DNA from: Sphingobacteriales bacterium
GTDB taxonomy: Bacteria > Bacteroidota > Bacteroidia > Chitinophagales > CAIOSU01
NCBI GenBank assembly: GCA_027486795.1
Contig: JAIXOI010000009.1
Location: 22,147-86,146 of the forward strand
DNA: 64,000 bases
Direction: 5' to 3'
Every line of letters begins with the position of its first letter. Position 1 is the stretch's first letter. This document shows, one piece after another, positions 3,471 to 26,703 of the stretch. A program made the translations under genes and the position numbers. The notes below the pieces were generated by a model. The model did no database searches and was not told where the DNA came from. It was given only the letters and a program-made list of their open reading frames with translations.

Positions 3471-3502
3471 AACTCGTAACCCGTAACTCGCAACTCGTAA
3501 CC
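3471..3502. repeat. period-7 tandem repeat (AACTCGT AACCCGT AACTCGC AACTCGT AACC)
   Basis: Read directly from the sequence. It ends 3 nt before the TTG start of the BASS gene. 28 of 32 positions are complementary to 3361-3392. Confidence 0.9.
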
Positions 3503-3505
3503 TTC

Positions 3506-4390
3506 TTGGAAACCATCCAACTTAATTTTAACGAAAATAATCTGATAGCCCTTAACATATGTATAGGGTTTATTGTGTTTGGCGTGGCGCTTGATTTGAA
3601 ATGGGCCGACTTCCTTAGGGTAATGGACACCCCAAAGTCGTCGTTGGTGGGTTTGCTGGCGCAGTTTGTTACCATGCCAGCCCTTACTTATTTGTTGATA
3701 CTGGTTTGGAAACCTGACCCTGCCATGGCACTGGGTATGATACTGGTGGCGGCATGCCCGGGCGGCAATATCTCTAACTTCCTTTGCCAATATGCTCGGG
3801 GCAATGCGGCACTTTCGGTGTCCATTAGTGCTATTTCCACTATAGTAGCCATTTTTGCCACGCCCATCAATTTTGCTTTTTGGAGCAGCCTACTGCCTGG
3901 CACGGAAAACGAGCAAGAAATAGTTATGGATGCTTGGGCTATGTTCCAATCTATATTAGTAATCCTATTATTGCCGCTTCTGCTAGGTATGGCCTTCAAT
4001 TATAAGTTCCCGACCCTAACGGATAGAATACGCAAACCTGTAAGCAACCTTTCTATGCTGGTGTTTGTAGCCTTTGTAGCTATGGCGTTTACTAAAAACG
4101 CCCATGTATTTGTCGCTTATCTCGATGTGGTGATGCTACTGGTATTTGTACACAATGCCCTAGCATTGGCCAGCGGCTACGGCTTGGCATATTTATTCCG
4201 GCTACCAGAACCCGATAGGCGTTCAGTGGCGATAGAGTCGGGCATACAGAACTCTGGCCTCGGGTTGGTGCTGGTTTTCAATTTTTTTGGTGGCTCGGGC
4301 GGCATGGCGCTTATTGCCGCTTGGTGGGGTATTTGGCATATTATCTCGGGCTTTGCCCTGGCTTTTTGGTGGCGCACCAGGCCGAGTTAA
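3506..4390 (+). CDS. bile acid:sodium symporter (BASS/SBF) family transporter
   Basis: Polytopic protein with family-type signature ACPGGNISN. TTG is the first start-like codon after the in-frame stop at 3470. Confidence 0.8.
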   Translation: METIQLNFNENNLIALNICIGFIVFGVALDLKWADFLRVMDTPKSSLVGLLAQFVTMPALTYLLILVWKPDPAMALGMILVAACPGGNISNFLCQYARGNAALSVSISAISTIVAIFATPINFAFWSSLLPGTENEQEIVMDAWAMFQSILVILLLPLLLGMAFNYKFPTLTDRIRKPVSNLSMLVFVAFVAMAFTKNAHVFVAYLDVVMLLVFVHNALALASGYGLAYLFRLPEPDRRSVAIESGIQNSGLGLVLVFNFFGGSGGMALIAAWWGIWHIISGFALAFWWRTRPS

Positions 4391-4450: not shown

Positions 4451-5920
4451 ATGAACCAGTGGCTAAAAATAATATTGGGTCCAGCTTTGGGTATTGCCAC
4501 TTGGGCTATGTTTGAGGCCGTACAGCCTGAGCCAATGGTATCCGCCATGGGATTGGTAACCATTTGGATGGCGATGTGGTGGATTACCGAGGCTGTGCCA
4601 CTGGCGGTTACGTCTTTCTTGCCGGTGTTTCTATTTCCGTTATTAGGTATTATGGGTGCCAAGGCTGTGGCGCCACTGTATATGAACGATGTGCTGATGC
4701 TCTTTATTGGTGGGTTTATATTAGCCTTTGCAATGGAGAAATGGGACCTACACAGGCGTATAGCTCTCAAAACGATTCTTATCATCGGTACCGACTTAAA
4801 GCTGGTTTTGTTGGGTATGATGGCGGCCACCTACTTTATCTCCATGTGGATAAGCAACACAGCCACAACTATGATGATGGTGCCTACCACCCTTGCTGTA
4901 ATAGCCAAAATGAAGGATTTGCTGGGCGACAGGGCCATGCCCGTGGCGAAGTCGTTTTTGTTGGGTATTGCCTATGCGGCCAGTATTGGCGGTATGGCTA
5001 CTATGATAGGCACACCTACCAATATGATATTCGTATCGCAGTTTCAAGCCATTTTCCCTAATCAGCCACAGGTTACGTTTTTACAGTGGTTTATGTATGG
5101 AGTTCCAACGTCGCTCATGATGCTTTTTGCTTGCTATGGCATCTTGCGCTGGCAGCACAAAATACCTAAGTTGGAAAATCCAGCAGAAACGCTGCACATT
5201 TTTAAAAGCGAATATGCCTCGTTAGGCAAAATGACCTACGAAGAAAAAATGGTGAGCTTGATTTTTGGCAGTACAGCACTGTTGTGGTTTACCCGTGCCG
5301 AAGCCAATATTGGCAGTTTTGATTTTCCTGGCTGGGCCAGTTTGTTTGGTGATAACAAAGGCTATTTTCTGGATGGTACGGTGGCTATTGCCATGTCGAG
5401 CATATTGTTTTTAATACCTTCCAAAAAAGACAAAAAATCCACATTGATGGATTGGAAAACGGTGCAAAAAATGCCGCTAAGTGTAATACTATTGTTTGGT
5501 GGCGGGTTTGCCTTGGCTGAAGGGTTCGGAGTATCGGGCTTGGCCGATTGGTTGGCTGGCGAAATCTCCTTCCTCACTGTATTACCTGCTTGGGCAATGA
5601 TATTTTTGATTTGTGTATTGGTAACCTTGTTGAGTGAGTTTGCCAGCAATGTGGCTACGGTTACGCTGGTGCTGCCCATTTTGGCGGCTATCGCCATTGG
5701 GTCGGGCATTAATCCATTATATTTAATGTTGCCTGCTACGTTCGCCGCATCGTTAGGCTTTATGCTTCCGGTGGCTACCGCGCCCAACACCATTGTTTTC
5801 GGTTCGGAAATGATAACTGCCAGAGAAATGGCTCGTGCTGGCTTCTTGTTGGATTTGGCAGGTGCAGTGCTTATTACTGGCACCATGCTATTGTTCGGGC
5901 ATTTTGTTTTTGGTTTATAA
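4451..5920 (+). CDS. DASS/SLC13-family anion:sodium symporter
   Basis: Two SNT/PNT hairpin-tip motifs (SNTATTMMM, ATAPNTIVF) and many hydrophobic segments. Confidence 0.85.
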   Translation: MNQWLKIILGPALGIATWAMFEAVQPEPMVSAMGLVTIWMAMWWITEAVPLAVTSFLPVFLFPLLGIMGAKAVAPLYMNDVLMLFIGGFILAFAMEKWDLHRRIALKTILIIGTDLKLVLLGMMAATYFISMWISNTATTMMMVPTTLAVIAKMKDLLGDRAMPVAKSFLLGIAYAASIGGMATMIGTPTNMIFVSQFQAIFPNQPQVTFLQWFMYGVPTSLMMLFACYGILRWQHKIPKLENPAETLHIFKSEYASLGKMTYEEKMVSLIFGSTALLWFTRAEANIGSFDFPGWASLFGDNKGYFLDGTVAIAMSSILFLIPSKKDKKSTLMDWKTVQKMPLSVILLFGGGFALAEGFGVSGLADWLAGEISFLTVLPAWAMIFLICVLVTLLSEFASNVATVTLVLPILAAIAIGSGINPLYLMLPATFAASLGFMLPVATAPNTIVFGSEMITAREMARAGFLLDLAGAVLITGTMLLFGHFVFGL

Positions 5921-5940
5921 GCAATGCGAAGGTAGGGGTA

Positions 5941-5964
5941 ATTAAAAAGTCCACCGAAGTGGAC
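5941..5964 (-). terminator. intrinsic terminator of small ORF copy 1
   Basis: The minus strand reads GTCCAC-TTCG-GTGGAC followed by TTTTTAATT. Confidence 0.7.
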
Positions 5965-6052
5965 CCTATGTATGTTACTTAGCCTTGGCTACTAATAAAG
6001 TGCTGTTTATGGGTATGAACCTAATAGGTTATACCGGGCAGTTATGCTTACT

Positions 6053-6181
6053 TTACAAGCAAGCAACAACTTCGGTAGTAGATTTCTCTACTTGAACTTG
6101 CGATTGTTCTTGTGGCATGGTAAAGCTGGTGAAAAACGCTAAAACACATACTGCGGCTCCTATTCTCATCATCTTGTTCAT
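6053..6181 (-). CDS. unannotated 42-aa small protein, copy 1 (MNKMMRIGAAVCVLAFFTSFTMPQEQSQVQVEKSTTEVVACL)
   Basis: Manual translation gives ATG...TAA. It is below the 60-aa ORF-track cutoff. The paralog at 6443-6571 differs at 5 synonymous sites and 1 conservative site. Confidence 0.6.
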   Translation of the reverse strand: MNKMMRIGAAVCVLAFFTSFTMPQEQSQVQVEKSTTEVVACL

Positions 6182-6204
6182 ATCTCTGTGCTTTTATTAC
6201 CTTC

Positions 6205-6232
6205 TTTTACGAAGGGTATTTGAAAAGGTTAC
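6205..6232 (-). promoter_or_regulatory. ECF-sigma-like promoter candidate (GTAACC-N15-CGTAAAA) for small ORF copy 1
   Basis: The motif is conserved with identical spacing upstream of both copies. CGTAAAA lies about 24 nt upstream of the ATG. Confidence 0.4.
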
Positions 6233-6329
6233 AGGTAGTTGAAAGATTTTTTTAAAACATTGCAATCAGTTGAAAAACAGCAACATAAATTAGGAGATTT
6301 CTCATTTCTTACCTTTTAAGTTAGGGGCA

Positions 6330-6353
6330 ATTAAAAAGTCCACCGGAGTGGAC
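6330..6353 (-). terminator. intrinsic terminator of small ORF copy 2
   Basis: The minus strand reads GTCCAC-TCCG-GTGGAC followed by TTTTTAATT. The only change from copy 1 is in the loop. Confidence 0.7.
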
Positions 6354-6442
6354 CTATATATGTTACGTAGCTTAAGCTACTAATAAAGTGCTGTTCATGG
6401 GTATAAGCTACCTAGGGCCTATACTGCGCAAGTATGTTTATC

Positions 6443-6571
6443 TTATAAGCAAGCAACAACTTCGCTAGTAGATTTTTCTACTTGAACTTGCGATTGTTCT
6501 TGTGGCATGGTAAAGCTGGTGAAAAATGCTAAAACACACACTGCGGCTCCAATTCTCATCATCTTGTTCAT
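6443..6571 (-). CDS. unannotated 42-aa small protein, copy 2 (MNKMMRIGAAVCVLAFFTSFTMPQEQSQVQVEKSTSEVVACL)
   Basis: Manual translation. Same length and frame as copy 1, with a single Thr36Ser change. Confidence 0.6.
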   Translation of the reverse strand: MNKMMRIGAAVCVLAFFTSFTMPQEQSQVQVEKSTSEVVACL

Positions 6572-6594
6572 ATCTCCGTGTTTTTGTTACCTTT

Positions 6595-6622
6595 TTTTAC
6601 GTGGGGCAGTTGAAAAGGTTAC
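6595..6622 (-). promoter_or_regulatory. ECF-sigma-like promoter candidate (GTAACC-N15-CGTAAAA) for small ORF copy 2
   Basis: Same motif and spacing as at 6205-6232. Confidence 0.4.
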
Positions 6623-6728
6623 GGGTGGATTGAAAGATTTTTCAAACAAAATGTCAAATGATTGATTTTCAGTTGTTTAATTTTGAAGTAAACTGAAAAA
6701 CTTCTTGAAACCACCAAAATTTTGAAGC

Positions 6729-7226
6729 TTATGCTAGCTCAAAAAACCGGCTGTGCCAGCTATCCTTGAAGGGCACTTCCCACTTAGTATGCAGGTCGCT
6801 GAGGGTTTCTATTAGGTTGTTATATACTAGTGTGTCGGGGGTAATGGTGCCTTGGGCCAACAAAGCTTCAAACCCTTCCCTATTTGCCGAGTTCACTTCA
6901 TTGCCAATTTTATAAGCTACATTAAACCGGTCAAAGAAGTCCACACCGTACTTTGCACCAAGCTCTTTTATAAAATGCACTGAGCTATCAATGGAGCAGC
7001 CACTCACGCCCACCTCGCGCTCATCAGCAGCGAGGATAACGAAGCGGTTGTGTACCAACTCTCCACCAGCAGCCACTTTCAGCTTGTGCGCGGTCCAGCC
7101 GCTTACAAATGCCGCAATATCGCGCTGCACGCTTGCTGCTTGCTCGGGTGTAAATGCTTTATTACTTTGGTACACCCATACTCGGCTTGCTGCGGGCAGT
7201 TGGGTAAAAAGGTTAGGGTTGGGCAT
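6729..7226 (-). CDS. conserved hypothetical protein
   Basis: 165-aa ORF resembling a Bacteroidota family I recall being auto-labelled ABC transporter ATPase. No Walker A (GxxxxGK[ST]) is present, so I do not adopt that label. Confidence 0.55.
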   Translation of the reverse strand: MPNPNLFTQLPAASRVWVYQSNKAFTPEQAASVQRDIAAFVSGWTAHKLKVAAGGELVHNRFVILAADEREVGVSGCSIDSSVHFIKELGAKYGVDFFDRFNVAYKIGNEVNSANREGFEALLAQGTITPDTLVYNNLIETLSDLHTKWEVPFKDSWHSRFFELA

Positions 7227-7879: not shown

Positions 7880-9598
7880 TTATTCTCCAATTGGCTTTGA
7901 AATATATGAAATGGCATATTCTAGTACTTCATCCCTACCATCTTTCAGGCCTTGGAGATTTGGTTTTACCTCGATATCAGGCATTACACCTTTTCCATGA
8001 AATTGGCTTCCGTCTTGGTTAAGGGTTTCCATACCTGTAAAACTGATATTGTAACCAGGTAACAAAACGGAAATCATATTTCCATTGCTACCTGCCGTTT
8101 GGCTACCGATAATGGTAGCTAGCTTGTTATACTTTACGGTCATAAGCAAGGTTTCGGCGGCACTAATGGCTATTTCGTTGATAAGGAAAACCACGCGCTT
8201 GCTTTTAATTGGATGCTCAGCTGGATTGATGCTAACATTATCGGAAAAGATTTTGGAGCAGTCGCGCGATGGTGTATTCAAATGTCTTACACCGAAAAGC
8301 GGGTACTTGACCGGGGATTTGGCGAGCCAACTGATTAAGCCCCTAAAGCCTATTTTAGGGTATCCTCGCATTTCAAATATCACGGACCTGCAAGTGGTGT
8401 CTTTCAAGCGCTCTTCTAGTTCTTTATTTGTTATGCGAGTTAAATCAATATAGCAAATACTATCTGGCAATGATATTTTAGAGCGTTGCAGTACTCCAAA
8501 TCCCTCAAAAGCTTTGGCGGTGTATGGTAAAGTAAGGGTAAAGGTAGTTTGACCATTCGGCGATACCATTTTCAACTTGATGCTATCGCCTGGGTTGCCC
8601 ACTCGCAGTTCATTTAATACCTCACGTTTTCTATATGCTGGCGTGGAACCCGTTACTATTTTATCTGCTAACTGGTACTGGTATTCTGTAAGGTAATTGT
8701 CAATTTCAATTACCTTCATGCCAATACAATTTACCTCCACCAAGGAAGTATCGAAGTTGGTAACAATTAGCTCGCCGCCTACAAAATCCCACTGAATTGG
8801 TGCTCGGTAAACAGCACCGTTAGCAATTACCGCCTCACTATATACCCTGCAATGTCCATCTGGCAAATAGGATAGGAAGTGCCTGATTTTATAATCCCTC
8901 GTTTCGGTGCCATCTGCTATGGCGAAGCCCTTTGCCAGCATTTCATCCCAAGTTATGGGCAACTGGTAAGGGTAAAAGAAATGGAAGATGTTCCATAGTT
9001 CGATAACATCAATGTAGCTGCGTTTTTCGTCGGGAGAGGTGATGGCTGTTTTGCCTTTGTGAAAGCGCTTACCAATTTTTTTAGGTTGGTAGGGTATTGA
9101 CATCCAAACCGTGTCGCTAAGTTGCACTTCCCAAAAGCGTTCGCCAAATGCAACATCGCAGGTGTCGCTATACTCCAGTTTTTTAGGTTTGAGGTAATGG
9201 GTACCATACGGGCCGAATTTTCGGTATAGCATCACCATAATCCCTCCTTTTGGGATGTATTCTTGGCCGTAGCCTCGGTAGTACCAAAATTTATTGTTTT
9301 TGGGTAGATTGGCTTTGCTGCTGGTGGCTACTGTGGGCGAGTCATATATATGTATATTGAACCCCCAATTTCTAAACTGTTTTTCAACGGCTGAGGTTTG
9401 GCCTTGGTAACCCAATTTTTGCAAGGTATCTACGCTTTCCAGCAAAAATTTATCCCAATCTACTTTTTGTAAATCGGGACTAGGATAAAAGTACCGCACT
9501 GGCCCATATGCCTTGGCAAATAAGGAAAGGCTTTCAGGAATACTACCCTTGGAGGTAAAAGAAAGAATTAGCAATAAGGATAGCAGGAAATAGCGCAT
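7880..9598 (-). CDS. S41-family peptidase (C-terminal processing / tail-specific protease-like)
   Basis: Ser/Lys dyad contexts NEIAISAAETLL and FHGKGVMPD. A signal peptide starts at the internal Met (MRYFLLSLLLILSF), so I set the start at 9598 rather than 9655. Confidence 0.75.
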   Translation of the reverse strand: MRYFLLSLLLILSFTSKGSIPESLSLFAKAYGPVRYFYPSPDLQKVDWDKFLLESVDTLQKLGYQGQTSAVEKQFRNWGFNIHIYDSPTVATSSKANLPKNNKFWYYRGYGQEYIPKGGIMVMLYRKFGPYGTHYLKPKKLEYSDTCDVAFGERFWEVQLSDTVWMSIPYQPKKIGKRFHKGKTAITSPDEKRSYIDVIELWNIFHFFYPYQLPITWDEMLAKGFAIADGTETRDYKIRHFLSYLPDGHCRVYSEAVIANGAVYRAPIQWDFVGGELIVTNFDTSLVEVNCIGMKVIEIDNYLTEYQYQLADKIVTGSTPAYRKREVLNELRVGNPGDSIKLKMVSPNGQTTFTLTLPYTAKAFEGFGVLQRSKISLPDSICYIDLTRITNKELEERLKDTTCRSVIFEMRGYPKIGFRGLISWLAKSPVKYPLFGVRHLNTPSRDCSKIFSDNVSINPAEHPIKSKRVVFLINEIAISAAETLLMTVKYNKLATIIGSQTAGSNGNMISVLLPGYNISFTGMETLNQDGSQFHGKGVMPDIEVKPNLQGLKDGRDEVLEYAISYISKPIGE

Positions 9599-9710
9599 TT
9601 TCCTTTTTTGGTTTAATAACGCATTAATGTTTGGTTTATTATGTTCCAAGCGCAAACTAGGTTTAGTTTGGCTACAAGATGCAATCTCGCAGCAGCGACG
9701 TTTTAATTTC

Positions 9711-26121: not shown

Positions 26122-26703
26122 ATGAAATTCGGGTTCATCGGCTCCTATTCTGAAGATCAAATCATCAACGGATGCGTTGTTGGAGATCGTACAGCGCAGC
26201 AAACGCTGTATAGCCGCTATTCACCGAAAATGTTTGCCATTTGCCTTCGTTATGCTAAAGATTACCACAGCGCCGAAGACATTTTGCAGGAGGGCTTCAT
26301 CAAGGTTTTTAGGTACATTTCAAACTTCCGTCGCGAGGGTTCTTTCGAGGGTTGGATGCGCCGCATTTTTGTTAATACAGCCATTGAGCATTTGCGCAAA
26401 GCAGTAAGTCTTTATTCCATTGTGGATGATGAGGACAAGCCAATGGATATATTGGACGAGAGCGCCTTTGATGCATTGGATTACCAAGATTTGCTTAACA
26501 TGGTACAGAGCCTTTCGCCAGGCTACCGTACCGTTTTCAATCTATACGTGGTTGAAGGTTATAGCCATAAAGAGATTGCGAAGTTATTGAACATTAGCGA
26601 AGGTACTTCGAAATCTCAACTGGCCCGTGCCCGCATGATTCTGCAAAAGAAAGTGGAGTCTTCTCAACGCCTGCCTTTGGAAGGCACTTCAGATTGGGGC
26701 TAA
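26122..26703 (+). CDS. RNA polymerase ECF-type sigma-70 family factor
   Basis: Region 2 (EDILQEGFIKVF) and region 4 HTH (SHKEIAKLLNISEGTSKSQLARAR). No anti-sigma gene follows. Confidence 0.88.
   Translation: MKFGFIGSYSEDQIINGCVVGDRTAQQTLYSRYSPKMFAICLRYAKDYHSAEDILQEGFIKVFRYISNFRREGSFEGWMRRIFVNTAIEHLRKAVSLYSIVDDEDKPMDILDESAFDALDYQDLLNMVQSLSPGYRTVFNLYVVEGYSHKEIAKLLNISEGTSKSQLARARMILQKKVESSQRLPLEGTSDWG

Follow-up and report, generated by a model that had tools for sequence, protein, structure and literature searches.

In Escherichia coli, AcrZ, MgtS, MntS, and KdpF are small stress-induced inner-membrane proteins that bind transporters. In Firmicutes, the Phr, PapR, and NprX pro-peptides are encoded by open reading frames (ORFs) of ~40 amino acids that start with a Sec signal peptide and close with a conserved motif at the C-terminus, and Phr genes have an alternative-sigma promoter. 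Proteins of fewer than 50 amino acids are routinely missed by ORF cutoffs, and few have been characterized in Bacteroidota. Here we describe a tandem pair of 42-codon ORFs in a 64,000-nucleotide stretch of a Sphingobacteriales genome (contig JAIXOI010000009.1, positions 22,147 to 86,146; "the window" below). Judged by comparative sequence evidence, both ORFs are real, conserved protein-coding genes under purifying selection. They belong to a new small-protein family, absent from Pfam, NCBIfam, PADLOC, and Rfam, that is of a familiar kind, the signal-peptide or single-helix microprotein. The product is probably a Sec-targeted microprotein with a periplasmic tail, induced by a sigma factor of the extracytoplasmic function (ECF) type.

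The two ORFs lie on the minus strand in head-to-tail modules, whose start-to-start distance is 388-390 nt:

6443-6571, minus strand: copy B ORF (the upstream copy), ATG...TAA, 42 codons, MNKMMRIGAAVCVLAFFTSFTMPQEQSQVQVEKSTSEVVACL
6053-6181, minus strand: copy A ORF (the downstream copy), ATG...TAA, 42 codons, MNKMMRIGAAVCVLAFFTSFTMPQEQSQVQVEKSTTEVVACL, identical to database protein P0001
~6311-6728, minus strand: copy B module
~5921-6310, minus strand: copy A module

An earlier reading of the DNA letters alone (the sequence-only reading) had placed two head-to-tail ORFs of 42 codons here, and its coordinates were reproduced exactly. Alignment of the copies also recovered the differences it had listed: 6 of 129 nucleotides differ between the ORFs, five of them synonymous changes at third positions, with no indels. 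The single nonsynonymous difference is a second-position change (ACC/AGC, Thr36Ser), and the probability of at least five of six changes falling at third positions is 0.018. As had also been claimed, the flanks are substituted and carry indels while the ORF is spared. Copies A and B differ at 12 positions in the 60 nt 5' of the ORF and at 22 positions plus 4 gap columns in the 3' region, a flank divergence of ~20% that departs from that of the ORF (Fisher p = 1.2e-4). Between the two ORFs, dS (synonymous divergence) is 0.23 and dN (nonsynonymous divergence) is 0.01. Because dS equals the divergence of the flanks while dN is so low, the pattern points to selection on the protein rather than to gene conversion confined to the ORF.

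Searches of databases, with the peptide or with successively larger alignments as query, returned about 20 distinct homologous proteins of 40 to 44 amino acids, and two further homologues were read directly from DNA, one at locus L009 and one as a second copy at L013 (L and P numbers are our designations for loci and proteins). These homologues are located on Chitinophaga-like Bacteroidota contigs from metagenome-assembled genomes and metagenomes, and they are 33-100% identical to the window peptide. The source databases label them "hypothetical protein" or leave them nameless, and scans of the peptide against Pfam-A, NCBIfam, and PADLOC gave no match at E <= 1. A Myxococcus locus (L010, 43% identity over residues 9-40) and the long or repetitive proteins P0007, P0009, and P0010 were treated as spurious, and a scan of metagenome contigs gave no match beyond the already known L003 contig.

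Across the homologues, pairwise dN/dS ratios are 0.04-0.62, all below 1. Length varies by whole codons, through in-frame indels, and none of the 27 ORF copies examined (25 distinct promoter-plus-ORF sequences) is frameshifted. In 16/16 family members examined, the sense frame is the only one of six that is free of stops. Neighboring genes provide a calibration: dS between the window and L001 is 0.37-0.68, and between the window and L012, L013, and L014 it reaches 1.7-2.5, which is saturated. By this measure the ORF has outlived neutral decay by far. The proposal of a translated peptide under purifying selection is thus strongly supported by orthologues as well as by paralogues.

A different explanation for the conservation is a noncoding or dual-function RNA in which the ORF is incidental. 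The features that bear on it lie 3' of the ORFs:

6326-6442, minus strand: copy B 3' untranslated region (UTR), with a variable hairpin, a TAGC-loop-GCTA hairpin, and a terminator hairpin (6336-6355) followed by a T-run
5935-6052, minus strand: copy A 3' UTR, with these three hairpins again and with TCCACTTCGGTGGA (5950-5963) in the terminator stem
5935-6000 and 6326-6390, minus strand: distal 3' UTR, with ACUUUAUUAGU, a GCC/GGC hairpin, AACAUAUAUAG, and the UUCG-loop terminator, found also at L012 5190-5250 and in L018

A 3' UTR of ~115 nt with two or three hairpins is found in the window lineage and in the clade of L012, L018, L020, and L021. Its last hairpin is an intrinsic terminator with a UUCG-type loop, and in copy A the terminator stem is ~25 nt from the stop codon of the convergent transporter gene described below. 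Several observations would suit an RNA function. The consensus fold of the 3' UTR has compensatory changes at three stem pairs, the mRNA folds somewhat better than shuffled sequences (z = -2.5), and the distal ~65 nt are ~80% identical, by eye, to L012 and L018, despite saturated synonymous sites. Over its whole length the 3' UTR is 62-64% identical between those clades, and its proximal half is not conserved.

The sequence-only reading had itself raised the idea that a noncoding RNA spanning the ORF might explain the conservation better. What speaks against it is the ORF, where substitutions fall mainly at synonymous sites and indels preserve the frame, together with the dispensability of the 3' UTR, which is missing while the ORF is retained at L009, L014, L015, L023, and the second L013 copy. 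Rfam searches at permissive E-values found no family at its gathering threshold. The sub-threshold matches, isrB (21.7 bits versus 35) and TarB (21.1 versus 80), align the terminator hairpin only. Since the ORF survives across saturated dS, has only its sense frame open, and is kept without the 3' UTR, a purely noncoding explanation can be rejected. As the sole explanation an RNA is already largely refuted, and we regard it as highly improbable. A conserved 3' element may exist besides the coding function, not instead of it; the distal 3' UTR, dispensable in other lineages, is a candidate for a stability element or for a small RNA derived from the 3' end.

Upstream, each ORF is preceded by a conserved promoter-like box and a short interval before the ATG:

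6598-6622, minus strand: copy B ECF-sigma-type promoter, GTAACCTTTTCAACTGCCCCACGTA, with the -35 element GTAACC at 6617-6622 and the -10 element CGTA at 6598-6601
6208-6232, minus strand: copy A ECF-sigma-type promoter, GTAACCTTTTCAAATACCCTTCGTA, with the -35 element at 6227-6232 and the -10 element at 6208-6211
6572-6597, minus strand: copy B -10-to-ATG region, with start site and short A-rich leader (GGTAACAAAAACACGGAGAT) predicted from promoter position
6182-6207, minus strand: copy A -10-to-ATG region, with short leader predicted from promoter position

The box G(T/C)AAC-N16-CGTA stands 5' of 25/25 distinct copies, with a spacer of N16 in 24 and N17 in one. The distance from CGTA to ATG is 26 nt in 20 of the 25, including both window copies, and 27-37 nt in the other five. 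There is little or no variation in the two promoter elements or in the T-tract that follows AAC, whereas the spacer sequence varies. By chance 0.58 occurrences of GTAACC-N14-18-CGTA would be expected in the window. The box was not found anywhere but before these ORFs in the 64 kb or in loci L001-L017, and a position-weight scan of the window yielded no further regulon sites.

Bacillus subtilis sigma-W promoters read TGAAAC-N16-CGTA. The architecture of the family box, AAC at -35 and CGT at -10 with a fixed 16-17 nt between them, is that of ECF promoters. Streptomyces coelicolor sigma-E promoters read GGAAC/GCAAC-N16/17-CGTC (PMC6767563), ECF40 promoters read CGTAAC-N16-CGAT and GTAAC-N17-18-CGAT (PMC12019637), and Bacteroidetes average ~22 ECF sigmas per genome (PMC7826278). 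Searches for a sigma-70 consensus promoter found none, and the Bacteroidota sigma-A -7 box TAnnTTTG does not occur upstream in the sense direction. Because the ECF architecture is present and these other boxes were not found, we infer that the promoter is ECF-dependent and that the leader is short and A-rich. The "long structured UTRs" of the sequence-only reading therefore probably do not hold on the 5' side, where the position of the promoter predicts a leader of ~18-20 nt. A 5' hairpin of the window lineage (ACCTTTT/AAAAGGT) is not kept in distant members and was set aside in favor of sequence-specific promoter recognition. The only ECF-type sigma gene detected in the window lies at 26122-26703 on the plus strand (E. 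coli RpoE query, phmmer E = 6e-18).

A second conserved element adjoins the -35:

6623-6684, minus strand: copy B upstream block (AATTAAA..CTGAAAATCAAT..TTTGAAAAAT), with a near-palindrome and an A-tract, delimited by eye
6233-6294, minus strand: copy A upstream block, more diverged, CAACTGATTGCAATGTTTTAAAAAAATC, delimited by eye

Judged by eye, this block of ~60 nt is conserved at the same position in all related loci. Within it lie a GAAAAT tract and an 11-bp near-palindrome resembling TTGAT-N-ATCAA, which is perfect in the second copy at L020 and reads TGAT-N-ATCA in L012 and L013. The block may be the site of a dimeric regulator or an UP element.

The window peptide consists of a basic N-terminus (MNKMMR), a hydrophobic helix of 11-16 residues, a TSF-T/S-P boundary, and a polar tail of ~19 residues. 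Its relatives share this plan. The consensus start is M-K-K/E-M-I/M-R (MKKMIR), the hydrophobic core reads I-G-A-A-V-[C/G/S]-[VI]-[LI]-A-x-F (IGAAVCIIAAF), and the boundary T-S-F-[T/S/A]-[P/M] (TSFTPA) is almost invariant. The tail is rich in Q, E, T, V, and K and ends E-x-[VI]-A-C-[LIV], with or without K/R. In the window the core has 11 residues (IGAAVCVLAFF), or 15-16 counting TSFT(M), and is bounded by R6 and P22/23. An AlphaFold2 model built from the family alignment predicts a helix at residues 3-20 (predicted local distance difference test [pLDDT] ~85), followed by a break at T-M-P; for the tail, confidence is low (pLDDT ~54).

All members have the n-region and h-region expected of a Sec substrate, M-[KNS]-[KERV]-x-x-R followed by 11 hydrophobic residues, and the n/h/c layout of ~23 residues suggests a Sec signal peptide or signal anchor. 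In deeper lineages the c-regions are T-P-A|E, S-P-A|Q, T-P-S|Q, A-P-A|N, and T-P-A|Q. These would be compatible with signal peptidase I cleavage of the A-X-A type and with the Q-rule, under which Q is frequent at +1 of Bacteroidetes signal peptides (PMC5837995). The helix also presents a face of small residues (G8, C/G/S12, A15, and S19), which is compatible with packing against a partner. A lipoprotein with Cys12 as the lipobox cysteine was rejected; the h-region before Cys12 has only 5 residues, and several members have Gly or Ser at that position. Among the alternatives offered by the sequence-only reading was a secreted or membrane signaling peptide. Its export or membrane part fits better than a toxin does, with the hydrophobic stretch ending at the conserved TSF-T/S-P; its signaling part is weighed below.

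The modules fill the space between two larger genes:

4451-5920, plus strand: gene for a DASS-family (Na+/anion symporter) transporter (TIGR00785, PF00939), convergent with the small ORFs
6729-7226, minus strand: gene for a 165-amino-acid protein, the 5' neighbor of the small-ORF array

The 808-nt gap between them is made up of the two head-to-tail modules. A convergent DASS gene is present in every locus whose downstream sequence could be seen (the window, L001/2, L004/5/6, L009, L012-L015, L018-L021, L023, and one further place where P0001 occurs), except L016/L017. In the compact members that lack the 3' UTR, namely the five copies listed above, the stop codon of the small ORF lies 0-7 nt from the DASS stop and no terminator separates the two genes, so that the small-ORF and DASS transcripts must overlap in antisense there. 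On the other side, the upstream neighbors are of at least five kinds: the 165-amino-acid gene, an amidohydrolase gene, queG, a 391-amino-acid gene, and a 371-amino-acid gene. Many relatives, the most distant one (L016) among them, have the 165-amino-acid gene as the neighbor, and others do not; its protein has no informative family or solved-structure match. Since the DASS gene stays tail to tail while the upstream neighbor changes, the DASS transporter is the most likely object of any functional tie, and within the ECF microprotein model we propose such a tie tentatively.

Other features around the locus deserve mention. A gene of the SBF (bile-acid:Na+ symporter) family lies at 3506-4390, and directly 5' of its start, at 3476-3506 on the plus strand, are four tandem heptamers (GTAACCC GTAACTC GCAACTC GTAACCT) that look like a repeated operator or direct-repeat regulator site. 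At L012, a called ORF of 44 amino acids (6955-7089, minus strand) between the DASS and SBF genes is very polar and of low complexity (MSDQKNPKEQETRKDQQNPQNPSKEQGKPGAQPGKQSETQQPRK), and it does not occur in the window. Between rplT and the 165-amino-acid gene, the window alone has a gene of the S41 (C-terminal processing) peptidase family (7880-9655, minus strand). At L001, L003, L004, and L005, rplT directly adjoins the 165-amino-acid gene. The tail of the small peptide, ..A-C-L, is hydrophobic, but the S41 peptidase is not conserved with the peptide.

The sequence-only reading preferred to see in this tandem pair a type I toxin-antitoxin locus, in which a membrane-damaging peptide is encoded by an mRNA held in check by antisense RNA. 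A small peptide that has its hydrophobic helix at the N-terminus, before a polar or charged tail, would suit such a system, as would a tandem copy number that varies from 1 to 3, and in compact relatives the 3' end of the DASS mRNA, which overlaps the small ORF, could in principle act as an antisense partner. Yet the peptide matches no toxin family in Pfam or NCBIfam (or in PADLOC at E <= 1), and a motif-based test found no antisense TAnnTTTG over leader, ORF, and 3' UTR in 14 modules. One antisense TAnnTTTG site does occur ~113 nt 5' of the first copy in some loci, but because it is directed away from the ORF it was rejected as an antitoxin promoter. Nor do the compact members contain a conserved noncoding block for an antitoxin: they consist of promoter and ORF abutting the DASS stop, so that a separate antitoxin gene would have no space. 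The predicted leader is short rather than long and structured, and the 3' UTR is missing in several lineages. The hydrophobic core of 11-16 residues with its signal-peptide-like c-region is also short for a toxin helix, which would be expected to have ~18-20 residues or more, and looks rather like a signal peptide. No patchy distribution was found; the locus has a single syntenic, vertically inherited position, to which a toxin-antitoxin locus is a poor fit. Taken together, these observations make the toxin label quite unlikely.

The genes around the array bear on another suggestion, that the ORFs encode the precursor of a ribosomally synthesized and post-translationally modified peptide (RiPP), or the leader peptide of a biosynthetic or attenuation system. 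The peptide is small and contains cysteine, and a gene for a TauD-family dioxygenase lies two genes beyond. However, neither a modifying enzyme nor a same-strand downstream gene is conserved alongside, the upstream neighbors vary, and L015 lacks the SBF-TauD block. With its own promoter and terminator and facing a convergent gene, the small ORF cannot attenuate anything downstream. We give this suggestion very little credence.

Copy number differs among relatives. A single copy is found at L001, L004, L005, L006, L008, L009, L012, L014, L015, L016, and L021. The window, L007, and L020 have two copies each, and the two at L013 are diverged paralogues. At L003 a second copy begins where the contig ends. 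Three copies are present at L018; at L019 two ORFs were called, accompanied by a third promoter box. Single-copy strains carry either A-type or B-type flanks. The single copy at L006 (349-660) combines a 5' flank that matches window copy B at 57/60 positions with a 3' UTR that matches copy A at 107/116; such a chimera is what unequal recombination inside the duplicated ORF would leave. By this evidence the tandem pair is one state of a dynamic array of one to three copies that recombine between repeats, and not a defining feature of the family.

These observations can be assembled into the ECF microprotein model that we favor. Each module would be an independent transcription unit composed of the upstream block, an ECF-type promoter, an A-rich leader, and the 42-codon ORF, and in the window lineage the unit would end with the ~115-nt 3' UTR and its intrinsic terminator. 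An ECF sigma factor activated by an extracytoplasmic signal would lead to transcription of the small gene. The Sec signal peptide or anchor would then take the tail to the periplasm, where it would be released or tethered to the inner membrane. There the peptide might act on the DASS transporter as an accessory or regulatory microprotein, or the effect on the transporter might come through convergent transcription.

Several points weigh against this model. The promoter assignment draws on motif architecture and conservation, and the one ECF sigma gene detected in the window has no GTAAC-N16-CGTA box upstream, so that no autoregulated cognate sigma was found there; the cognate gene may lie elsewhere in the genome. 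The c-region of the window lineage, T-M-P|Q, has Pro at -1 and is a poor signal peptidase I site, and the window peptide may therefore stay membrane anchored. In addition, the hydrophobic N-terminal segment is better conserved than the tail. Segments that serve only as signal peptides seldom show this, a hint that the helix has a function of its own. The distal ~65 nt of the 3' UTR are conserved beyond neutral expectation, and the model leaves that unexplained. As for the transporter, the most distant member, found at L016/L017, has neither a DASS neighbor nor the C-terminal Cys. This member (L016 4337-5833, also L017) encodes 40 amino acids and ends ..TALK; it keeps the promoter box (with a 17-nt spacer) and the 165-amino-acid neighbor (50% identity), and in place of DASS its small ORF faces a gene for a 194-amino-acid protein with a faint TPR_6 match. 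The DASS link could also be passive, as a gap of 0-7 nt leaves few breakpoints.

The same promoter and the same peptide layout lend themselves to another reading, in which the product is an exported signaling pro-peptide: with its signal peptide cleaved off, the conserved C-terminal E-x-[VI]-A-C-[LIV] would be active extracellularly or in the periplasm, possibly after further processing. In its fullest form, an ECF-controlled, Sec-exported signaling or effector pro-peptide whose copy number sets the dose would signal between cells or in the envelope, or would regulate DASS or bind it as a ligand, and in lineages with Q at +1 that residue would form pyroglutamate once the signal peptide is removed. 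A peptide of ~42 amino acids that runs from a signal peptide through a variable middle to a conserved C-terminal motif would suit such a system, as would a dedicated alternative-sigma-type promoter and tandem copies that change gene dosage. Against this, no conserved receptor or oligopeptide importer is adjacent. The neighbors are DASS, the 165-amino-acid protein, the amidohydrolase, QueG, and others, among which an adjacent TPR receptor of the RRNPP kind was not found, the faint TPR_6 match beside L016 being the only trace. The hydrophobic N-terminus is the best conserved part, and we know of no Phr-like peptide signaling system in Bacteroidota. We therefore consider a pro-peptide unlikely, both in outline and in its fullest form. 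Were it true, it would represent a Gram-negative counterpart of Phr-like peptide signaling.

The family gives unusually clean comparative evidence for translation. The conserved ECF-type promoter would serve as a reporter and as a route to the responsible sigma factor, and with its lasting linkage to one anion transporter the locus offers a tractable entry to an ECF regulon and to microprotein function in Chitinophagaceae. It overturns no current view.

How, then, does the family compare with described systems? With the type I toxins Hok, Fst, TisB, Ldr, Ibs, and ZorO it shares size, a hydrophobic N-terminal helix, and tandem intergenic duplication. It differs from them in having no toxin-family match, no antisense promoter or antitoxin block, a short predicted leader, an ECF-type promoter, and stable synteny. 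The Phr, PapR, and NprX pro-peptides are closer in layout, with ORFs of ~40 amino acids, a signal peptide, a variable spacer, a conserved C-terminus, and a dedicated alternative-sigma promoter. In contrast to them, the present family occurs in a diderm phylum without an adjacent RRNPP-type receptor, has a conserved Cys in its C-terminal motif, and is more conserved at the N-terminus than in the tail. The family box resembles ECF promoters in the AAC of its -35 element, the CGT of its -10 element, the constant spacing of 16-17 nt, and the T-tract that follows AAC, whereas the conserved block of ~60 nt 5' of the -35 is a difference that suggests an additional regulator. With AcrZ, MgtS, MntS, and KdpF there is no sequence similarity, the hydrophobic span here is shorter and is followed by a signal-peptidase-like c-region, and the gene is convergent with the transporter gene rather than part of its operon. 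What the family has in common with these transporter-binding proteins is a length below 50 amino acids, a single N-terminal hydrophobic helix whose small-residue face is compatible with helix-helix packing, a stress-type promoter, and a transporter gene next door.

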